DNA of 64,000 nucleotides from Patescibacteria group bacterium. GTDB taxonomy: Bacteria > Patescibacteriota > Saccharimonadia > UBA4664 > SCTI01. The notes below the pieces were generated by a model. The model was not told the DNA's origin. It searched no databases and saw nothing but the letters and a program-made list of their open reading frames with translations. Both the position numbers and the translations under genes were made by a program. How positions within the stretch are numbered: position 1 is the stretch's first letter; each line of letters begins with the position of its first letter. Of the stretch, positions 2,648-34,823 are shown piece after piece. The stretch is taken from NCBI GenBank assembly GCA_004297735.1, contig SCTI01000002.1, positions 160-64,159 of the forward strand, in the 5' to 3' direction.

Positions 2648-4036
2648 TTAAAACTTGTCGAGCTGAGCCTGAACTTCGTCCGCTAGCCCATCGATCTTAA
2701 CTCTCACCTGTTCCAAAGTATCGCGGTGACGAATGGTAACCGATTTGTCCTCTAGGGTGTCAAAATCAATCACAATACATAATGGCGTGCCAATCTCGTC
2801 CTGGCGGCGGTAGCGCTTGCCGATATTGCCGTTGTCGTCATACATAACCGCGCCGAACTGCTTTTTGAGGTCGGCGTAAACGTCCTTGGCAACCTTAACC
2901 AGCTCAGGCTTGTTGCGCAGCAGCGGCGATACCGCTACCTTTACCGGGGCTAATTGCGGCTTGAGCTTAAGCACGGTGCGGTCATTCTTGTCGTCCTGCC
3001 AGTAAGCGGCAGTCAGAATAGCCAGCACGGTTCGGTCCACCCCAAAGGTTGGCTCAATCACGTGCGGGATAAATCGCTGGTTGGTGGTTGGGTCGAGGTA
3101 GCCCACATCAACCCCACTGTGCTTGGCATGGTTGCTCAAATCAAAATCGGTGCGGTAAGCCAGGCCGTACAACTCCTTTACGCCAAACGGAAACTCAAAC
3201 TCAAAGTCGATCGTTTTTTTGGAGTAGTGAGCACGGTCAGCCTCGGGAACGTCCAGGTCGTGAATACTGGTCTTTGGCAGGCCAATCAGCTCCATCCAAT
3301 CGCGCATACGCTGCTCCCACTCGGCAAACTGCTGCTCCCACTCCCCTTCGGTCACAAAGTACTCAATCTCCATCTGTTCAAACTCGCGGGTACGGAAAAT
3401 GAAATCTTTAGGTGTGATTTCGTTACGAAAGGCCTTACCGATCTGCGCCAAACCAAACGGCAGCCGTGGATGAATACTATCCATAACGTTTTTAAAGTTT
3501 ACAAACATACCTTGAGCGGTCTCGGGGCGCATATAAACTTGGTTGGCGCTATCCTCGACCACCCCGGCCCGGGTCTCAAACATCAGATTGAACTGACGAG
3601 CGTCGCTCAGTTCGTTGCCCTCCGGGCTCTTGATGCCAAGCTCTTTAATCTTGGCGCTCATTTGGTCTAGCGTCATCCCAACTGGGTCAATATCATGCTC
3701 TTCCAGTAAATGATCCACGCGATAGCGTTTGCGGGTCTTCTTGTCCTCAACCAGTGGGTCGGCAAAGCCGGCGCCGGTGTGCCCACTGGCCTGCCAGACA
3801 CGAGCGTTCATTAAAATAGCGGCATCGACACCGTACATATCATCGCGACTATCAACAAAAAACTGCCACCACAGCTGTTTAATATTGTTTTTAAGCGCCA
3901 CTCCATAAGGACCATAATCCCAGGTACCAGCTAGACCGCCGTAAATTTCGGATCCCTGAAAAATAAAGCCACGTCGCTTGGCCAGCGAGACCAGTTCATC
4001 GATTGTAGGAGTTTGAGTGGTTTTTTTGTCGGCCAT
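2648..4036 (-). CDS. glyQS: Glycine--tRNA ligase, dimeric class II type
   Basis: 462-aa ORF with the overall GlyRS alpha2-type pattern (FRNEITP, GLAYRTDFDL, GVDRT). Confidence 0.9.
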   Translation of the reverse strand: MADKKTTQTPTIDELVSLAKRRGFIFQGSEIYGGLAGTWDYGPYGVALKNNIKQLWWQFFVDSRDDMYGVDAAILMNARVWQASGHTGAGFADPLVEDKKTRKRYRVDHLLEEHDIDPVGMTLDQMSAKIKELGIKSPEGNELSDARQFNLMFETRAGVVEDSANQVYMRPETAQGMFVNFKNVMDSIHPRLPFGLAQIGKAFRNEITPKDFIFRTREFEQMEIEYFVTEGEWEQQFAEWEQRMRDWMELIGLPKTSIHDLDVPEADRAHYSKKTIDFEFEFPFGVKELYGLAYRTDFDLSNHAKHSGVDVGYLDPTTNQRFIPHVIEPTFGVDRTVLAILTAAYWQDDKNDRTVLKLKPQLAPVKVAVSPLLRNKPELVKVAKDVYADLKKQFGAVMYDDNGNIGKRYRRQDEIGTPLCIVIDFDTLEDKSVTIRHRDTLEQVRVKIDGLADEVQAQLDKF

Positions 4037-4072: not shown

Positions 4073-4789
4073 CTACTCTAGCACCTGGGCGGCACGAAAC
4101 CGCTGACCAAAGGTGTGGTCGTAAAAGGCGTTGCAGGCCAGCATTGAATCAACCGCTAGATCGCTCACCGCCTCAATGCGCCGGATTGAACTCAGCGGGT
4201 TGGCCAACATCAATCGCCACAGCTTAATCTGGTCCTGGGTTAAGGGCAGATTGATTGAACCACAGCCGTCCCCAATTATGCCACCGTGCTCGACGCTCAA
4301 ACCATAATTACGGTGCGATTTTGCGCCATGACAGACAACACAGCCGTCCAGCTCCGGGCGGTAACCGAGTTGATCTAGCAAGCGCAGTTTAAACCACAGC
4401 TCGGTTACCGTGTCGGGGTTAGCCGGTATCTCCTTGAGCGTATCGTGCATCAAATCAAACAGCGCCGGGTGTTCCCCTTCGCCACTCAAGCGGTTGGTCA
4501 TCTCGGCAACCAAGTAGGCCAAGCGCATTGCATCGTAGTTATCACCAATCTTCAAATGCGACTGCAGTCGCGCCGAGGTGATAATATCGAGGTTCCGACC
4601 CTCGGTTAACATCAGATCCGATTCAGAGAACAGCTCTAGGTGTCCGGCCAGTTTGCTTTTAATCCGGCGCACCCCTTTGGCTACCGCGCGGATCACCCCC
4701 CGCTCCGGCGTAATTAGCACAATAATACGATCGGCCTCACCAAAGTTATGGCGGCCAATAATAATCCCTTTTGTCTGATAACTTGCCAT
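4073..4789 (-). CDS. recO: DNA repair protein RecO
   Basis: 238 aa. The N-terminal OB-like KGIIIGRHNFGEADRII and a Cys-rich segment (CVVCHG...GDGCG) fit RecO. Confidence 0.85.
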   Translation of the reverse strand: MASYQTKGIIIGRHNFGEADRIIVLITPERGVIRAVAKGVRRIKSKLAGHLELFSESDLMLTEGRNLDIITSARLQSHLKIGDNYDAMRLAYLVAEMTNRLSGEGEHPALFDLMHDTLKEIPANPDTVTELWFKLRLLDQLGYRPELDGCVVCHGAKSHRNYGLSVEHGGIIGDGCGSINLPLTQDQIKLWRLMLANPLSSIRRIEAVSDLAVDSMLACNAFYDHTFGQRFRAAQVLE

Positions 4790-4826: not shown

Positions 4827-5213
4827 TTAAGCGGACGAGGTATTAAGCGCTACCATCACCTTTTTTACCACCTCATCCGGGGTATGGTGCGACTTAATTA
4901 GATAGTCGGTTACGCCCAGGGCTCGCGCCAGCTCTTGGTTCATGTCAACTTGAGCCTCACCAAGGTTGGTCAGCAAAATTACCGGTACGTTGCGCAATCC
5001 CGGCTTCTTTTTTATCTCTTTTAAAACGTGGAAGCCGTTCATTTTTGGCATCAAAATATCCAGTAAGATGATGTCGGGGGTGTAACCCTCTAATAAATTC
5101 AAGCACTCTTCGCCATTGGTAGCCACCACCACCTCATGACCCTCCATATCAAACTTGGCCTCATACATTTCAACCAGTACGCGATCATCTTCTGCCAACA
5201 TTATCTTTGCCAT
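4827..5213 (-). CDS. Single-domain response regulator (receiver only)
   Basis: MAKIMLAEDD...DIILLDILMPKMNG matches the CheY-like acidic pocket. GGAGG lies 7 nt upstream of the ATG at 5213. Confidence 0.85.
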   Translation of the reverse strand: MAKIMLAEDDRVLVEMYEAKFDMEGHEVVVATNGEECLNLLEGYTPDIILLDILMPKMNGFHVLKEIKKKPGLRNVPVILLTNLGEAQVDMNQELARALGVTDYLIKSHHTPDEVVKKVMVALNTSSA

Positions 5214-20950: not shown

Positions 20951-21004
20951 GTACACCTCTAGAGGTTGAATTTTCAGAGAACGTGTCCCTTTACGGGATA
21001 TTAC

Positions 21005-21033
21005 ACTATATAATACTTTTGTTTTTTTGTCAA
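21005..21033 (-). promoter_or_regulatory. Sigma70-type promoter, ATTGACAAAA family
   Basis: Minus strand: TTGACA (21033-21028), 17 nt, TATAGT (21010-21005). The context is AGATTGACAAAAAAA. Confidence 0.65.
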
Positions 21034-21102
21034 TCTAAGAATCGACTATGTTTAATCTGGTTTTCATCTGTTGAGCGTGGATTCGTGGGAGGTAAAGTGG
21101 GG

Positions 21103-21132
21103 CCCTGGAGCGGCAGAGTTGCCGCCCCAGGG
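21103..21132 (-). terminator. Hairpin terminator after the 95-aa gene
   Basis: Minus strand: CCCTGGGGCGGCA-actc-TGCCGCTCCAGGG, a 13-bp stem with one G-U pair. Confidence 0.6.
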
Positions 21133-21142
21133 TTGAGTCGCA

Positions 21143-21430
21143 TCAAAAGCAGGGCCGATGGGCCCAGTACTGGACCGAGTATGAGGGGTAGCCAGCCACC
21201 CTGACTACCTCGACCCAGCGAGTGAGCAGAGGCGCCGAGATGGTGACTTCCTCAAAGTCAAGGCACATCCGGTAAAGCTTTCCGCTGCTGCTCCATCCGG
21301 TGTTGTTGTACGGGCTTGCCGGGGCCTTGGTTGCTGCGGCTGCCCAAAAACAGCACAAGCCGGCCGACAGCAGCATGATGAGCAGGAATGCTCGCCAGCC
21401 CCGGCGGTACAACGACATCAGGTGTGACAT
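21143..21430 (-). CDS. GC-rich small secreted protein, 95 aa, unknown function
   Basis: GAGGAGGG lies upstream of the ATG at 21430. Signal-like MSHLMSLYRRGWRAFLLIMLLSAGLCCFWAAAATKA. Third codon positions are mostly G/C in this frame. The mature part has two Cys. Confidence 0.65.
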   Translation of the reverse strand: MSHLMSLYRRGWRAFLLIMLLSAGLCCFWAAAATKAPASPYNNTGWSSSGKLYRMCLDFEEVTISAPLLTRWVEVVRVAGYPSYSVQYWAHRPCF

Positions 21431-21588
21431 AATCTGGCACCCTCCTCAGGGCTTCAAGATCTACAGATCGTGAACTTCTGCGGTAGGGCATCCGTGCCCC
21501 TCCTATGTGGTTGCTTTCCTATCTGATACGACTCTGGGTGACTTGATCACCCACGAATCAACACATCGCTGTCAACGTACGATGGACA

Positions 21589-21617
21589 AATATACCATAA
21601 AGCTTACGTTTTGTCAA
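21589..21617 (-). promoter_or_regulatory. Sigma70-type promoter, ATTGACAAAA family
   Basis: Minus strand: TTGACA (21617-21612), 17 nt, TATATT (21594-21589). The context is TCATTGACAAAAC. Confidence 0.65.
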
Positions 21618-21701
21618 TGATTTTACAGCACTGTATAGCTGATTTAATTACCAGTTAATTAAAAATTCGACAGATAGAACGATCTGGATTATGGTCGATA
21701 T

Positions 21702-21947
21702 ATGAACTATATTGATCAGCCTGGCTACGAGGAGTTTAAGGAAGCAATAAAGCGCTTCCACCCCGACACTCAAGAGCGTTTATTGCGCATACATGCTAAA
21801 AATGAGCAAAGGTGGAGAGCTCACGATGAAGATTTTTACGCAGTTATTGAGGATACAACTCAGATGAAGAAGTTATTACGACGGATTAAAAAGCGTCTTG
21901 ATGCATTTGAAAATAAGTCTAAAGCGGTCGGGACAAGAAAAGCCTAA
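21702..21947 (+). CDS. AT-rich hypothetical protein, 81 aa
   Basis: ORF MNYIDQPGYEEFKEAIKRFHPDTQERLL... is convergent with secA and overlaps its stop by 4 nt. No recognised family. Confidence 0.45.
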   Translation: MNYIDQPGYEEFKEAIKRFHPDTQERLLRIHAKNEQRWRAHDEDFYAVIEDTTQMKKLLRRIKKRLDAFENKSKAVGTRKA

Positions 21948-24556
21948 CGTCGTTTTTTGCGTTTTTTGTTTGCCTTTTTAGAGCCCCCAGATGAGCTCTT
22001 TTGTCGTCTAGCAGCACGGTTGCCACCAGATGGAGCAACCTCTTCCCCATCTGATCCGGCCTGGCTCATATCGCTGAGCTCGTGGGCCTGGGCAGCGGCC
22101 CGGGTCATAGCGGTCTGGACCTGTTCACCGGCTGGTTCAATGGTCAGGCTGGCGCGTAAGATTGAATTGGCAATCTCCGCCTCCATAATCTGGATCAGCC
22201 GATTAAATAGGTTGTGACTTTCGCGCTTGTACTCAATTAACGGATCGCGCTGACCAATGGCACGCAGGCCAATACCTTCACGCAGTCGCTCCATGGCCTC
22301 CAGGTGCTCAATCCATAACCGGTCGAGTATCTGCAGGTAAACCAGCCGCTCCAGCAAGCGCATCGCCTCCGACCCCATCTGTTGTTCCCTGGAATCATAC
22401 AGCTTAGCGGTGTAACCAATTAGGATTTGAGCCACATCTCGCGGGTCAGCATCCTTAACCTGATCTATTACCGACTGGTCCAACATCATGCCGGCCTGGA
22501 CCTGTTCAACCACCTTATCGGTATCAAGTATGCCGGTACGCTGATCGGTGTGAGCTTCAACCAACACCGTCATCTCGTGAGCCAGCATCTTCTCAATCTC
22601 TTCCCTCAGGTTGGCGTGCTTGAGCGCCGCCTTGCGTCGGCTGTAAATCACCTCACGGTGTCGGTTCATTACATCGTCAAACTCAACCACCTGCTTGCGA
22701 ATGTCGAAGTTGTGCCCCTCCACCTTCTTTTGGGCGTTTTCAAGACTACGACTAACCACGCCGCTCTCAATCGGCGTTTCGTCGTCAACACCTAGACTTT
22801 GCATCAAACCGGCCACTCGCTCGCCACCAAAGATGCGCATCAGATCATCTTCGAGCGAGACATAAAAACGGGTTGAGCCTGGGTCACCCTGGCGCCCAGC
22901 GCGACCACGCAGCTGGTTGTCGATCCGACGAGACTCGTTGCGCTCGGTACCAATTACGTACAAACCGCCAACCTCCTGCACTCCTTCGCCCAACACAATA
23001 TCGGTACCACGACCGGCGATGTTGGTGGCAAGCGTCACCGCCCCCGGCTGGCCGGCATCGGCCACAATTGAGGCCTCGCGTTCGTTGTTTTTGGCGTTGA
23101 GCACTCGGTGCGGAATCTTAGCCTTACTTAGCAACTGGCTCAGCATTTCGTTCTTAGCGATTGAGGCAGTACCAACCAACACCGGCTGACCGGCCTGGTG
23201 TCGCTCGGCAATATCACCCACCACGGCGTTAAACTTACCCATCTGAGTACGATAAATTCGATCTGGATGGTCAATTCGGATATTGGGTTTGTTGGTTGGA
23301 ACCACCACCACATCTAGCTCATAGACCTTAAAGAACTCCTCTTTTTCGGTCGCGGCGGTACCGGTCATACCGGCCAGCTTCTGGTAAAGGCGGAAGTAGT
23401 TCTGGAAGGTGATGGTGGCTAGCGTCATCGATTCCTGACGAATCTCAACCCCCTCTTTGGCCTCAATCGCCTGGTGTAGACCCTCGCTGTAGCGACGACC
23501 GTGCATTAAGCGACCGGTGAACTCGTCCACAATAATGATCTCGTTTTCGCGCACCACGTAATCTCGATCCTTGAGGTAGAGCGACTGAGCCTTGAGCGAC
23601 TGCTCAACGTGGTGAACGTCCTCAATCCGACCGGCTTCGTAAACATTATCAACACCTAAAGCCTTTTCCAGCTTACAAATACCATCGTCGGTAACACTGA
23701 CCGCCTTTTGCTTTTCGTCCAAGGTGTAATCTGTCCCCTCCTGTAAACCCTGGGCCAAGCGGGCAAACTGACGATACTTGTCGGTGCTTTCGCCGGCCGG
23801 GGCGCTAATGATGAGTGGAGTCCGTGACTCGTCAATCAAGATAGAGTCGACCTCGTCAACAATGGCGTAGGCCAGATCACGCTGCACCATCGCTGGCTCT
23901 TCATTAACCATATTGTCGCGCAAGTAATCAAAACCAAACTCGTTGTTGGTACCGTAGGTAATATCGGCGGTATAGGCTTCGCGGCGGCTAACCGGGCGCA
24001 GATGTTTGAGTCGGACGTCGTCAACACCTTCGGCCCCATAGTCCGGATCGTACAGATAAGCTGATACACCAAAGGTCGCCTGTGGCACAATCACCCCGGT
24101 GGTCAAGCCAAGCGCATGGTAAATCTGAGCCATCCAGCCGGCGTCACGTCGTGCCAGATAGTCGTTAACGGTCACCACGTGAACGCCCTTACCGGCCAAA
24201 GCGTTAAGGTAGGTTGGCGCGGTAGCAACCAGGGTCTTACCCTCACCGGTCCGCATTTCGGCGATTTTACCCTGGTGGAGCACGATTCCGCCGATTAGCT
24301 GGACATCATAATGGCGCTGGCCAATGGTGCGCCTGGCGGCTTCGCGAACCGTGGCAAAGGCTTCGGGCAGGAGATCATCGATGCCGACACCTTCTTTGGC
24401 AAGCTGATCTTTGAGCTTTTGGGTCTGATCTTTGAGCTTAGCATCGGATAATTTCTTGGTTTTGGCTTCGAGTGCGTTGACCTGTTCAACCAGCCGCTGA
24501 GCGCGGTTGACTTCGCGGGAACTGGTATCGCCAAAAATGCGCTGCAACAACTTCAT
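21944..24556 (-). CDS. secA: Preprotein translocase ATPase SecA
   Basis: 870 aa with MRTGEGKTL Walker A, DEVDSILIDE DEAD-like box and TNIAGRGTDI. The C-terminus is a Lys/Arg-rich tail without the Cys zinc motif. Confidence 0.95.
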   Translation of the reverse strand: MKLLQRIFGDTSSREVNRAQRLVEQVNALEAKTKKLSDAKLKDQTQKLKDQLAKEGVGIDDLLPEAFATVREAARRTIGQRHYDVQLIGGIVLHQGKIAEMRTGEGKTLVATAPTYLNALAGKGVHVVTVNDYLARRDAGWMAQIYHALGLTTGVIVPQATFGVSAYLYDPDYGAEGVDDVRLKHLRPVSRREAYTADITYGTNNEFGFDYLRDNMVNEEPAMVQRDLAYAIVDEVDSILIDESRTPLIISAPAGESTDKYRQFARLAQGLQEGTDYTLDEKQKAVSVTDDGICKLEKALGVDNVYEAGRIEDVHHVEQSLKAQSLYLKDRDYVVRENEIIIVDEFTGRLMHGRRYSEGLHQAIEAKEGVEIRQESMTLATITFQNYFRLYQKLAGMTGTAATEKEEFFKVYELDVVVVPTNKPNIRIDHPDRIYRTQMGKFNAVVGDIAERHQAGQPVLVGTASIAKNEMLSQLLSKAKIPHRVLNAKNNEREASIVADAGQPGAVTLATNIAGRGTDIVLGEGVQEVGGLYVIGTERNESRRIDNQLRGRAGRQGDPGSTRFYVSLEDDLMRIFGGERVAGLMQSLGVDDETPIESGVVSRSLENAQKKVEGHNFDIRKQVVEFDDVMNRHREVIYSRRKAALKHANLREEIEKMLAHEMTVLVEAHTDQRTGILDTDKVVEQVQAGMMLDQSVIDQVKDADPRDVAQILIGYTAKLYDSREQQMGSEAMRLLERLVYLQILDRLWIEHLEAMERLREGIGLRAIGQRDPLIEYKRESHNLFNRLIQIMEAEIANSILRASLTIEPAGEQVQTAMTRAAAQAHELSDMSQAGSDGEEVAPSGGNRAARRQKSSSGGSKKANKKRKKRR

Positions 24557-32031: not shown

Positions 32032-33072
32032 CTACTTAAACTGGGTTGGCACCAAGATATCCTTGAGCGTATCGATATCCTCTAGCACCAGACCGGTCCC
32101 CCGCGCCACCGCCGTTAGCGGGTCATCGGCCACGTGTACCGGCATCTTAGTTTGCTGCATCAGTAGAGCATCCAGGCCTTTAAGTAAGGCGCCGCCGCCC
32201 GCCAAAACAATGCCACGCTCCAAAATGTCCGCCACCAGCTCTGGCGGAGTCTCCTCGATCGTGATCTTAACCGCCTCAACAATCTCGCGAACACTCTTAG
32301 CTAGCGCCTTCCGAATCTGCTCATTGGTTACCTGAACCTCTTTTGGCAAACCGGTCACCAAATCACGCCCCCGCATCGGCATCGACTTAGGCTTGTCTAG
32401 CTGGTGAGCCGCTCCGACCGTTACCTTAATCTGCTCAGCGGTCCGCTCACCAATAGTCAGGTTGAACTCATCGCGAGCAAACTGGATAATGTCTTCGCTT
32501 AGTTCGTCACCGGCAACCCGGATACTGCGGCTGGCCACAATCCCACCCAGCGAAATCACCGCGACCTCGGTGGTACCACCGCCAATATCGACAATCATTG
32601 AACCGGCTGGATCCTGAATTGGCAGTCGACAGCCGATCGCCGCGGCCATTGGCTCTTCGATGAGGAAGGTCTGGCGGGCGCCGGCGTTGGTGGCGGCGTC
32701 TTCCACCGCGCGCTTTTCCACCTCGGTTACGCCGCTGGGGATGCCAACCACCACCCTTGGTCTGGCCAGCAAGTTCCAGCGCTGGGGATGCACCTTGTCG
32801 ATAAAGTAGCGCAACATCTGCTCGGTAACCTCAAAGTCGCTGACAACACCGTCTACTAGTGGTCGGGTCGCCACAATACTGCTGGGAGTACGCCCAACCA
32901 TCTTTTTAGCCTCGTCACCAATGGCTAATACCTGGTTGGTTTTGGTGTTAATTGCCACCACGCTTGGTTCGTTGATCACAATCCCACGGCCGCGCACATA
33001 CACCAGGGTGTTAGCGGTCCCTAGATCGATCCCAATATCGTGCGAAAATCTTCCGAGTAGTCGGTCAAACAA
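32032..33072 (-). CDS. mreB: Rod shape-determining actin homolog MreB
   Basis: 346 aa with DIGIDLGTANTLVY and DIGGGTTEVAV. The apparent start codon is TTG. Confidence 0.95.
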   Translation of the reverse strand: MFDRLLGRFSHDIGIDLGTANTLVYVRGRGIVINEPSVVAINTKTNQVLAIGDEAKKMVGRTPSSIVATRPLVDGVVSDFEVTEQMLRYFIDKVHPQRWNLLARPRVVVGIPSGVTEVEKRAVEDAATNAGARQTFLIEEPMAAAIGCRLPIQDPAGSMIVDIGGGTTEVAVISLGGIVASRSIRVAGDELSEDIIQFARDEFNLTIGERTAEQIKVTVGAAHQLDKPKSMPMRGRDLVTGLPKEVQVTNEQIRKALAKSVREIVEAVKITIEETPPELVADILERGIVLAGGGALLKGLDALLMQQTKMPVHVADDPLTAVARGTGLVLEDIDTLKDILVPTQFK

Positions 33073-33256
33073 TGTCTATACCAGCGTTACCATCTTGAGT
33101 TAGTTTAACAGGTTTGAGGGGTTTGAGGCTAGGGGTGACTTAGGGCGGCTTCACCTCCATGTGCTGTTTTGTAAAATGGGCTGTTTAAAGATTTTTAAAC
33201 GAGAGCAGCCGCGCGCTACCTGAGAATATTCCTTTAAAAAGTAAATTTTGGCCCTC

Positions 33257-33297
33257 ACACCTGTTAAAAGATCCTTAAACAGGTGTTTTGCTATAAT
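33257..33297 (+). promoter_or_regulatory. Extended -10 promoter overlapped by a 9-bp perfect inverted repeat (candidate operator)
   Basis: ACACCTGTT (33257-33265) and AACAGGTGT (33278-33286) with a 12-nt spacer, then TGCTATAAT (33289-33297). Confidence 0.55.
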
Positions 33298-33339
33298 TAG
33301 AGCTAAGAGCTCTTCACATCTGACCGAAAGAAGTCGCAC

Positions 33340-33510
33340 ATGGCCATTAAACACGACTGCACTTACGAGGAGTTCGAACCCCCCGAAATTCGTCGCGTCC
33401 GCGAGCGCCTCCAGGAGCAGCTGGCCAGACAAGGCATCGCCCTCCGAGGTCGACCTCCTGTCTGGGTTGTCGGCGCCAGCATCAAGCCTGTTTCAACCAG
33501 AACCAAGTAG
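33340..33510 (+). CDS. GC-rich small protein, 56 aa (not in the supplied ORF track)
   Basis: ATG at 33340. MAIKHDCTYEEFEPPEIRRVRERLQEQLARQGIALRGRPPVWVVGASIKPVSTRTK. About two thirds of third positions are G/C. It is bracketed by the promoter above and the terminator below. The RBS is weak (GAAAGAAG). Confidence 0.45.
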   Translation: MAIKHDCTYEEFEPPEIRRVRERLQEQLARQGIALRGRPPVWVVGASIKPVSTRTK

Positions 33511-33517
33511 CTCAACG

Positions 33518-33557
33518 GGCCCGGGTGGAATGTTCCTACCCGGGCCGCAGTGTTTTT
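33518..33557 (+). terminator. Intrinsic terminator
   Basis: GGCCCGGGT-loop-ACCCGGGCC followed by GCAGTGTTTTTT. Confidence 0.7.
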
Positions 33558-33575
33558 TATTGAGTAATAATTAGA

Positions 33576-34823
33576 TTATTTGAAAAGTTTGAGAGCTTCG
33601 GCGTGCGAGACAAGCTTTGACTCCGCTTCGTTACGACGTTTTACTTCGACACTGTTTTCTTTGAGCGTCTTAGGGCTAACCGTTAATCGGACCGGCATAC
33701 CCATCAGGTCGGCGTCGGCGAACTTGGCGCCAGCTGGAATGTCACGGTCGTCGTAAATTGTTTCAATACCCTGCGCTTTAAGGTCAGCGTAGAGCTTGTC
33801 GGCGGCCTTGACGACGTCTTCATCCTCACCGATTCGAACAATGTGAGCCTTTGCCGGCGCAATCTCTTCTGGCCAAATCATGCCTTTATCGTCGTGGAAC
33901 AGCTCAATCAGTACGCCCATAACGCGCGCCGGGCCAATACCGTAAGAACCCATGATGACCGGCTTAACCGAGCCATCCTCATCGGTAAACTTGAGACCGA
34001 GTGGGTCGGAGAACTTGGTACCGAGCGTAAAAATGTTACCAACCTCGGAGGCGTTAACCTTTTCGAGCTTGTTTTTATCGAGGCCAAGATCGTTAAGGAC
34101 CTCATCGGTGTAAACCTCTTCGTTGACGGCCAGCTTCTTGTCGCGATCTAGGTAAATAACATCCTCTCCGGCCTCAATTATGGCCTGGAACTCATGCGAG
34201 TACTTGCTAAAACTGCCGCCGCTGGCAAAAGTAATAAAGGTGTGGTCACCGATTCCAAGGCGCTGAAATACTTTGGTGTAAACCTCTTTCATTTTTTCGT
34301 AATACTCATCATGCTGCTTTTGGTCGCGGCTAAAGGAATAGAGGTCCTTCATAATAAACTCGCGCGTACGCATGATGCCGCTCTTGGCCCTAACCTCATT
34401 GCGGAACTTGGCCTGGAACTGGTAAACATACTGCGGCAGATCACGGTAGCTGCTAATGTTTTCAGCCATTAGCTCGGTTAGCGGCTCTTCGTGAGTAAAA
34501 CCAAGACCCAGCTCGGTGTCGTTGTGCAACTTGGTGCGGAACCAAACGTCGACCTGCTTATCGTCCCAACGGTTGGTTTTTTGCCACAGTTCGGGCGGCT
34601 GCAGCGCGGTCATGGTTAGTTCCTGGCCGCCGGCTGCATTCATCTCTTCGCGGATGATGCCAATAATGCTGTTGAGCGTCTTGAGGCCCAGCGGCAGCAT
34701 AACGTAAGCACCGGCCATCTGCTTATGAACAAAGCCCGCTCGCAGCAGTAGCTGAGCGCTAATTGCCTCCTCATCCCTGGGAGCTTCACGTCTAGTCTTG
34801 GTAAAAAGTTGAGATAGTTTCAT
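33576..34823 (-). CDS. proS: Proline--tRNA ligase (short form without insertion/editing domain)
   Basis: 415 aa with class II core motifs (FRNEVRAKSGIMRTREF, GSYGIGPAR) and a C-terminal anticodon-binding domain. Confidence 0.88.
   Translation of the reverse strand: MKLSQLFTKTRREAPRDEEAISAQLLLRAGFVHKQMAGAYVMLPLGLKTLNSIIGIIREEMNAAGGQELTMTALQPPELWQKTNRWDDKQVDVWFRTKLHNDTELGLGFTHEEPLTELMAENISSYRDLPQYVYQFQAKFRNEVRAKSGIMRTREFIMKDLYSFSRDQKQHDEYYEKMKEVYTKVFQRLGIGDHTFITFASGGSFSKYSHEFQAIIEAGEDVIYLDRDKKLAVNEEVYTDEVLNDLGLDKNKLEKVNASEVGNIFTLGTKFSDPLGLKFTDEDGSVKPVIMGSYGIGPARVMGVLIELFHDDKGMIWPEEIAPAKAHIVRIGEDEDVVKAADKLYADLKAQGIETIYDDRDIPAGAKFADADLMGMPVRLTVSPKTLKENSVEVKRRNEAESKLVSHAEALKLFK

Follow-up and report, generated by a model that had tools for sequence, protein, structure and literature searches.

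Bacterial repressors classically act at an operator that overlaps the promoter and at an auxiliary upstream copy of it, the O1/O2 arrangement. Variable islets between core genes have their cargo replaced by recombination through the conserved flanks. Small proteins of bacteria (<100 amino acids, aa) are catalogued in GMSC (PMC11364881) and sORFdb (PMC11796252), and have been reviewed (PMC10723866). The locus described here resembles each of these in part. It lies in a stretch of 64,000 nucleotides (nt) of contig SCTI01000002.1 from a Patescibacteria group bacterium, which is referred to as the window and is numbered from its first letter. The element in question is ORF56, a plus-strand open reading frame (ORF) of 56 aa located between mreB and proS. 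A preliminary description of the window had proposed ORF56 as an unannotated gene with an operator-like palindrome. Relatives were fetched as contigs or loci designated by L-numbers (L001, L082, L163-L176 and so on), with L166 as the main comparison genome.

A candidate small-protein gene conserved in two lineages

Sequence comparison suggests, with a probability of about 0.72, that ORF56 is a genuine lineage-restricted small-protein gene forming its own monocistronic unit on the strand opposite proS and mreB. The coding frame and two longer ORFs at the same place are as follows.

33340-33510 including the stop, plus strand: ORF56, encoding the 56-aa protein MAIKHDCTYEEFEPPEIRRVRERLQEQLARQGIALRGRPPVWVVGASIKPVSTRTK; ATG at 33340, TAG at 33508-33510.
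33151-33432, minus strand: spurious 93-aa ORF, codon score 0.00 bits/codon.
33248-33574, plus strand: spurious 108-aa ORF, codon score -0.35 bits/codon.

An exhaustive HMMER scan of 1.84 billion representative proteins returned one true match to ORF56. This protein, P0001, has 53 aa and is 58% identical over the full length (E 4e-12). Two other HMMER matches were long repetitive proteins and are regarded as spurious. Two samples contain P0001: it occurs on a Logan contig and, in a version with the single substitution S8F, on an ENA scaffold of 205 kb. Its gene lies between proS and mreB in an orientation identical to that of ORF56, converging on proS and diverging from mreB. With a profile built from the two homologues, P0001 alone was recovered, and a word-indexed search of 5.8 billion proteins with the 56-aa sequence gave no match. 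The word-indexed result came close to the lack of homologues that the preliminary description had named as evidence against the gene, and it was the HMMER scan that supplied a single homologue. An exact-product look-up did not find the 56-aa product called on any record; on an identical 38-kb Logan contig (L081) the gene caller picked the 93-aa antisense ORF. There were no ORF56 paralogues in 176 fetched loci, and a repeat search found no further copies of the element elsewhere in the 64-kb window.

The comparison with L166 spans a large distance. The ProS proteins of the two genomes are 88% identical, and the synonymous divergence (dS) is 1.3-3.7 across five neighbouring genes, that is, saturated. 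Over this distance ORF56 kept its start, stop and frame through two in-frame indels (4 codons and 1 codon). Its nonsynonymous divergence (dN) is 0.27 and its dS 1.33 (dN/dS ~0.2), and the differences at codon positions 1, 2 and 3 number 15, 11 and 25. Codons 2-7 carry five synonymous changes and zero replacements; random trials gave such an outcome in 0 of 200,000. When random substitution was simulated at this divergence, 2.5% of runs retained the open frame together with start and stop; the chance that both indels fall in frame (~1/9) comes in addition.

Codon usage points the same way. ORF56 is the only one of the six frames with positive codon log-odds (+13 bits, +0.23 bits/codon). Among true in-frame windows the score falls at the 16th percentile, and it exceeds 99% of off-frame windows. 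Of 208 short ORFs out of frame with any long gene, ORF56 ranks 5th (top 2.4%). The GC content at its three codon positions (0.66/0.48/0.66) resembles that of the window genes (0.60/0.41/0.62). The preliminary description had read the GC-rich coding part as a mark of a cassette. GC over ORF56 (0.61-0.65) is indeed higher than in the flanks (0.39-0.42), but it is the ordinary coding GC of the genome (window GC 0.534) and not a cassette signature. From one lineage pair, we conclude that the ORF56 frame is likely translated and under purifying selection.

Signals flanking the frame

All features listed in the preliminary description are present in the sequence at the coordinates it gave. The non-coding ones, together with those found since, are given below.

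33182-33201: O2, a second dyad-symmetric, operator-like copy, TGTTTAAAGATTTTTAAACG; a direct repeat of O1 with 17 of 20 positions identical.
33257-33286: O1, a 30-bp near-palindrome with halves ACACCTGTTAAAAGA and TCCTTAAACAGGTGT and core TGTTAAAAGATCCTTAAACA; 13 of 15 pairs complementary.
33257-33265 and 33278-33286: outer arms of O1, a perfect 9-bp inverted repeat, ACACCTGTT and AACAGGTGT, from reading the sequence.
33289-33297, plus strand: extended -10 element TGCTATAAT of the TGnTATAAT type; aligned in L166 with TGATATAAT.
33305-33314, plus strand: leader palindrome AAGAGCTCTT at the 5' end of the predicted transcript.
33326-33333, plus strand: weak Shine-Dalgarno (SD)-like purine run GAAAGAAG, ending 6 nt before the ATG.
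33518-33546, plus strand: hairpin of a conserved intrinsic terminator, GGCCCGGGT.../...ACCCGGGCC, followed by GCAGTG and a T6 run at 33553-33558.

These signals stand out as footprints when the window is aligned with L166. The conserved non-coding elements (O1, O2, the TGnTATAAT box, the leader with its SD and the terminator) are separated by spacers at background identity. The 50 nt adjoining mreB are 78% identical, O2 85%, O1 80%, the -10 box 83%, the leader 66%, the ORF 65%, and the region from the terminator to the proS stop 76%. The two spacers are 51-57% identical, as against 46-48% for shuffled sequence. A syntenic homologue, a coding substitution pattern and footprints on the flanking signals thus agree with the earlier proposal that the 56-aa frame is the real unannotated gene.

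The extended -10 motif is present as the preliminary description had it and is conserved in L166. No recognisable -35 box lies upstream of ORF56, and for that reason a generic promoter scanner passed the motif over. Transcription is predicted to start near 33304, leaving a predicted leader of ~35 nt. The SD of L166 at the aligned position is a strong GAAGGAG. The leader palindrome is likewise present as described, and the aligned site is symmetric in relatives with other letters (GAGTACTC in L166, GAAGTACTTC in L165). A perfect 10-bp palindrome is expected ~0.5 times per 500 nt, and the leader palindrome is not significant from the window sequence alone; folding showed no conserved RNA hairpin there.

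The terminator had been called strong, and it holds up as such. Its hairpin has 11 pairs (9 of them G-C) with a folding energy of -25 kcal/mol (z -3.9). The stem and the T-run are kept in four relatives (L166, L165, L172 and L173) while the loops vary, and the energy was -24 to -28 kcal/mol in all three genomes folded.

O1 had been described as a 9-bp inverted repeat. It is present and conserved as claimed, but it is larger (30 bp) and has a second copy 80 bp upstream. The 9-bp repeat alone is unremarkable, because perfect 9-bp inverted repeats with a spacer of <=20 nt occur at ~24 places in 64 kb. In contrast, the dyad TGTTTAAAG-NN-CTTTAAACA with <=3 mismatches occurs at exactly two places in 64 kb, O1 and O2, versus 0.01 expected. 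The centre of O1 is ~32 bp upstream of the predicted transcription start, over the place of the missing -35 box. A site over the -35 region is the usual position of a repressor. O2 lies between the divergent mreB and ORF56 promoters, at a spacing of 80 bp from O1 that becomes 81 bp in L166.

In L166, O1 is a perfect 32-bp palindrome with halves TCTACCTGTTTAAAGA and TCTTTAAACAGGTAGA. In L165 it is a perfect 28-bp palindrome that matches the O1 of L166 at 30 of 30 nt. From L166 to the window, both members of pairs 14 and 15, counted from the centre, have changed (T-A to C-G and C-G to A-T), and each half-site has one unpaired change. The symmetry of O1 was kept, as the outer-pair changes occurred on both sides. 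The dyad is conserved beyond its neutral surroundings, overlaps the predicted promoter and is unique to the locus within 64 kb. The half-site TGTTTAAAG was matched to no known regulator family.

Some further observations were made on these signals. Two independent Logan contigs both end exactly at the perfect O1 palindrome (L162 at position 1, L165 at position 4691), which is probably an assembly break caused by the palindrome. A 17-nt inverted repeat was found at 33104-33120 and 33252-33268; it was rejected as a separate element, being explained by the resemblance of an O1 half-site to the extended -10 box of mreB. A -10 box of the (T)GCTATAAT type precedes many window genes. Boxes of the GCTATAAT or GCTAAAAT type lie 6-10 nt before start codons that have no SD in the genes at 4036, 26208, 37362 and 52222, and the same close boxes without an SD were seen in the genes at 24556, 36635, 16018 and 10468. 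Leaderless mRNAs therefore seem to be common in this genome.

The region upstream of mreB (33076-33110, minus strand) has a conserved extended -10-like box, TGnTA(A/C)ACT, which was also aligned in L163, L166, L168, L170, L082 and L001. The ATG of a mini-ORF of 5-9 codons is located 8 nt past this box. The mini-ORF reads MVTLV in the window and MVTLEHDLV, MLTLVEYFV, MVMLVVRLV and others in relatives. Its stop lies 3 nt before, or overlaps, the non-SD TTG, ATG or GTG start of mreB. The arrangement looks like that of a leaderless message whose 5' end lies on the mini-ORF and in which mreB is translationally coupled to it. At 33111-33129, a tandem of GGTTTGAGG and GGTTTGAGG directly precedes the mreB promoter box; the first unit alone is conserved in relatives.

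The variable slot between proS and mreB

The neighbouring genes are on the minus strand in the order PBP2-like transpeptidase, mreD, mreC, mreB, gap, proS, CPBP protease, rseP, uppS, frr and tsf. Elsewhere in this otherwise dense minus-strand gene array, a segment of ~1 kb (20956-21944) has no ORF of >=100 aa. The proS-mreB gap of the window is 503 nt. Of 37 fetched Patescibacteria loci holding both genes, 33 have a gap of 8-145 nt. The gap of the window is therefore an insertion relative to the common state, and the preliminary description was right to speak of ORF56 as inserted between mreB and proS.

It had also suggested that the junction be compared in relatives. The ProS sequence assigns the window to Saccharimonadia/Patescibacteria. 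The best GTDB species representative has a ProS that is 68% identical to that of the window, and the best JGI metagenome contig one that is 72% identical. In the GTDB genome and JGI metagenome relatives found via ProS (<=72% identity), the slot contents were unrelated. ProS homologues of 83-89% identity were then traced to their contigs. This survey revealed a variable slot: hardly any two lineages agree in its content, and at least seven unrelated contents were seen in this Saccharimonadia clade.

Window and L166: ORF56 and its 53-aa homologue.
L165: a 248-aa orphan.
L168 and L170: 200-aa orphans.
L173: a partial homologue of the L165, L168 and L170 orphans.
L172: a dead (deletion) remnant.
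L163 and L169: proteins like the C-terminal domain of RNA polymerase alpha (PF03118).
L082: a 217-aa orphan.
L001: a 157-aa membrane protein on the other strand.
L175: two same-strand ORFs.
L174: an empty gap of 201 nt.

The two PF03118 proteins differ in size. The one in L163 (3800-4333, minus strand) has 177 aa and one domain, and the one in L169 (5134-6132, minus strand) has 332 aa and apparently several repeats. The mutually related 200-248-aa proteins of L165, L168, L170 and L173 are referred to as family A. They are divergent (L165 and L170 are 28% identical, E ~1e-3) and have no Pfam, PHROG, PADLOC or PDB match. In L168 the family A gene is preceded by its own palindrome pair of 24 nt, AAGTTCGGAA-N4-TTCCGAACTT, 28 nt apart (5115-5177), which differs in sequence from O1 and O2.

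The signals around ORF56 also occur around other cargo. L165 has the same O1, a homologous leader with an SD, and the same terminator around its 248-aa gene. The terminator is also found in L173, after a family A gene, and in L172, after the deletion remnant. Overall, the cargo changes while a shared promoter and/or terminator frame is retained in five lineages. Since L165, L173 and L172 carry parts of this expression frame around other content, it predates ORF56 and is not specific to it. The signals said to frame the 56-aa ORF are thus footprinted as proposed, but they do not belong to that ORF alone.

Where did ORF56 come from? A 14-nt segment in it matches the remnant of the 3' end of a family A gene in L172 exactly.

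33413-33426, plus strand: AGGAGCAGCTGGCC, codons 25-29 of ORF56.

None of 2000 dinucleotide shuffles reached 14 nt (shuffle maximum 11). The same codons are in frame with the C-terminus of the L165 protein (QEQLAR versus KTQLAK). Furthermore, alignment of the ORF56 leader plus 5' coding region gives z 4.3 against L165 and a weak z 2.9 against L168. Because end sequences are shared with that family, ORF56 probably descends from a family A gene by loss of the interior and gain of a 24-residue tail. An N-terminal resemblance of ORF56 to the 217-aa L082 protein was also considered, and BLASTP gave it no support.

Such a descent leaves room for a different view of ORF56, as non-functional family A debris that is still open by chance, with the regulatory frame kept for another reason, such as mreB control or the protection of proS from convergent transcription. 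Homology to family A at both ends of the ORF56 region would fit a relic, as would the frame that L172 keeps around a dead remnant, the fast turnover of slot content among relatives and the weak SD of the window. However, with dS saturated at 1.3, the start, stop and frame nevertheless survive two indels at a dN/dS of ~0.2, and codons 2-7 have five synonymous and no replacement changes. The 24-residue tail is absent from family A yet conserved (RPPVW), while the adjoining neutral spacers have decayed to background identity. We give the relic explanation a small chance.

RNA, recombination and the longer frames

A second explanation is that the functional product is an RNA of ~250 nt, either a regulated antisense to proS read-through (excludon-like) or a trans-acting small RNA, and that the ORF is incidental. 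The promoter and terminator do delimit a short unit that opposes the transcription of the neighbouring genes. The terminator is one-directional; its hairpin lacks a following T-run on the minus strand, which may let proS transcripts through, and the minus strand of the window folds at z -3.5. On the other hand, the plus-strand fold is ordinary (z -1.05), and the strands of L166 are similar to one another (z -2.2 and -2.9), with different structures that are mainly terminator-driven. Rfam gave no match, either by gathering score over the window or at E up to 10 over 33050-33620. The codon-periodic substitutions and in-frame indels are unlike RNA-level selection, and mreB has its own conserved promoter-like box and so does not depend on read-through. 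We regard an RNA product as improbable.

A third explanation concerns O1 and O2, which could be recombination or insertion sites for the exchange of slot cargo rather than operators for a transcription factor. Core sites of tyrosine recombinases such as dif have an 11 + 6 + 11 bp layout. The perfect 28-bp form of O1 can be divided in the same way (TACCTGTTTAA, AGATCT, TTAAACAGGTA). Furthermore, the cargo varies among close relatives while O1 and the terminator are constant, and the two-sided changes preserve symmetry. Against this, the fetched flanks contain no recombinase, integrase or tRNA gene, and O1 and O2 are both on one side of the cargo with no copy at the terminator end. The central 6 bp are symmetric and hence give no directionality, homologous recombination through the proS and mreB flanks would suffice for cargo exchange, and a search for the dyad in viral contigs gave no match. 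The recombination explanation is a shade less probable still than the RNA one.

Lastly, that one of the longer ORFs is the real gene is scarcely credible: both exceed ORF56 in length and the 93-aa ORF was called on L081, but their codon scores are zero and negative, they have no family match, both cross the promoter, palindrome or terminator, and neither stays open in L166, whose longest alternatives reach 35-48 aa and lie in different registers, so they are spurious, as they had been judged to be.

Several points nevertheless weigh against ORF56 as a genuine gene with its own regulated unit. It is found in just two independent lineages, and the selection tests rest on 52 aligned codons. The bias among codon positions reaches a chi-square p of ~0.05, by our own arithmetic from the 15/11/25 counts. 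The SD of the window is weak. ORF56 has no family, domain or structure match, and an AlphaFold model from the two-sequence alignment is of low confidence, with a predicted local distance difference test score (pLDDT) of 60 and one helix (residues 15-30), the rest being unstructured; its quality was too low to support a fold search. The link to family A does not appear at the protein level, where BLASTP gave nothing at E up to 1 and hhalign paired ORF56 residues 18-32 with the C-terminal helix of family A over 15 columns at 1.6% probability.

The operators raise points of the same kind. The O1-O2 spacing of 80-81 bp corresponds to a non-integral number of helical turns. No dyad-binding regulator was identified in the fetched flanks; the preliminary description had proposed a binding test with one encoded nearby. 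O1 and O2 may also serve something other than ORF56, such as mreB, because the gene behind O1 in L165 is another one and L172 retains an O-like dyad despite having lost the slot gene. A dyad without cargo in L172, and an identical O1 before different cargo, make it more likely that the dyad-binding factor is encoded elsewhere than by the slot gene.

Protein properties and a possible role

The ORF56 protein is basic, with a net charge of ~+4 (11 K/R, 7 D/E) and no hydrophobic stretch. ORF56 and P0001 share an invariant N-terminus, MAIKHDC, and a Pro-rich basic tail of 24 residues with a conserved RPPVW. The predicted helix is amphipathic, with Arg and Glu. The segments HDCTYEEFEPPEIR and GRPPVWVVGASIK were named as peptide targets. 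Searches of ORF56 against Pfam, NCBIfam, PHROGs and PADLOC gave nothing above threshold, a PDB sequence search with family A gave no match, and neither did tblastn with ORF56 against phage and plasmid collections nor a search for the protein in viral contigs.

Some known classes were considered. A resemblance to Csx3, a CRISPR-associated ring nuclease, scored E 0.16 and 12.3 bits in Pfam against a cut-off of 21 and was treated as chance; PADLOC gave Csx3 at E 0.009-0.04 over ~25 residues, and P0001 had no match. A type I toxin or small membrane protein was rejected because there is no transmembrane helix, the protein is charged throughout and the predicted helix is of Arg and Glu. As for small DNA-binding folds, such as a ribbon-helix-helix layout (an N-terminal strand plus two helices) or a helix-turn-helix, the AlphaFold model from the two-sequence alignment has one helix, at pLDDT 60, and Pfam and NCBIfam gave no match.

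What might the protein do? A tentative idea is that ORF56 is a small binding or adaptor protein that acts via its helix on a protein or nucleic-acid partner. We would not expect an enzyme, a secreted peptide or a membrane toxin.

How might the unit operate? RNA polymerase would start near 33304 from the extended -10 promoter without a -35 box. A dimer of a DNA-binding protein whose gene lies elsewhere in the genome would occupy O1 over the -35 position and probably O2 as well, 80 bp upstream. The bound protein would repress ORF56, activation being less likely, and it may influence the divergent mreB promoter too. The transcript of ~250 nt would terminate at the hairpin before reaching proS. 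As to its history, a family A gene of 200-248 aa most likely collapsed within the promoter-terminator frame, with the end segments surviving and a new tail added.

A broader and more speculative possibility, to which we give a low probability, is that ORF56 is a micro-protein from the collapse of family A that was kept by selection, and that the gap is a regulated "swap slot" whose cargo is co-controlled with mreBCD, the cell-shape operon, via O1 and O2. The slot proteins, among them ORF56, would then modulate envelope, shape or host attachment in episymbionts.

Significance and comparison with known systems

The value of the finding is local rather than general. It adds one gene and a two-lineage small-protein family to a Patescibacteria genome whose annotation skipped the locus or called an antisense ORF. 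Families of this kind may go wholly unnoticed in a word-indexed search but come up in an exhaustive profile scan. For an uncultivated lineage, the locus offers a compact natural case of phylogenetic footprinting, and its candidate promoter, two-site operator motif (TGTTTAAAG-N2-CTTTAAACA) and terminator could serve for reporter studies in Saccharibacteria. If ORF56 did arise by collapse, it shows that a micro-protein under selection can be what is left of a large accessory gene, with the regulatory frame retained.

ORF56 and family A share position and orientation, DNA homology at both ends and, in L165, also O1, the leader, the SD and the terminator. They differ in that ORF56 has about one quarter of the length, a 24-residue tail without counterpart and no significant protein similarity.

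The classical O1/O2 operators are matched in several respects. The 20-bp dyad occurs twice in a divergent intergenic region, one copy over the -35 and spacer region and the other ~80 bp upstream, and it is conserved. In contrast to the classical case, the spacing is not helically phased, and the gene that stands behind the operator varies between genomes.

As a variable islet, the locus has proS and mreB adjacent in most Patescibacteria and a gap that, in this clade, holds at least seven contents. Unlike such islets, the proS-mreB slot is very small (1-2 genes), has no mobility genes, and keeps a common promoter and/or terminator frame in five lineages.

Like the products of short ORFs (sORFs), ORF56 is short, missed or mis-called by annotation, lineage-restricted and without a domain, and it is recognisable only through its conservation and its own promoter, SD and terminator. 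It differs from them in that the family is present in only two known lineages and the regulatory frame is better conserved than the protein. ORF56 and P0001 together are a new small-protein family within a known category, that of the unannotated sORF gene with a classical layout of promoter, operator and terminator.

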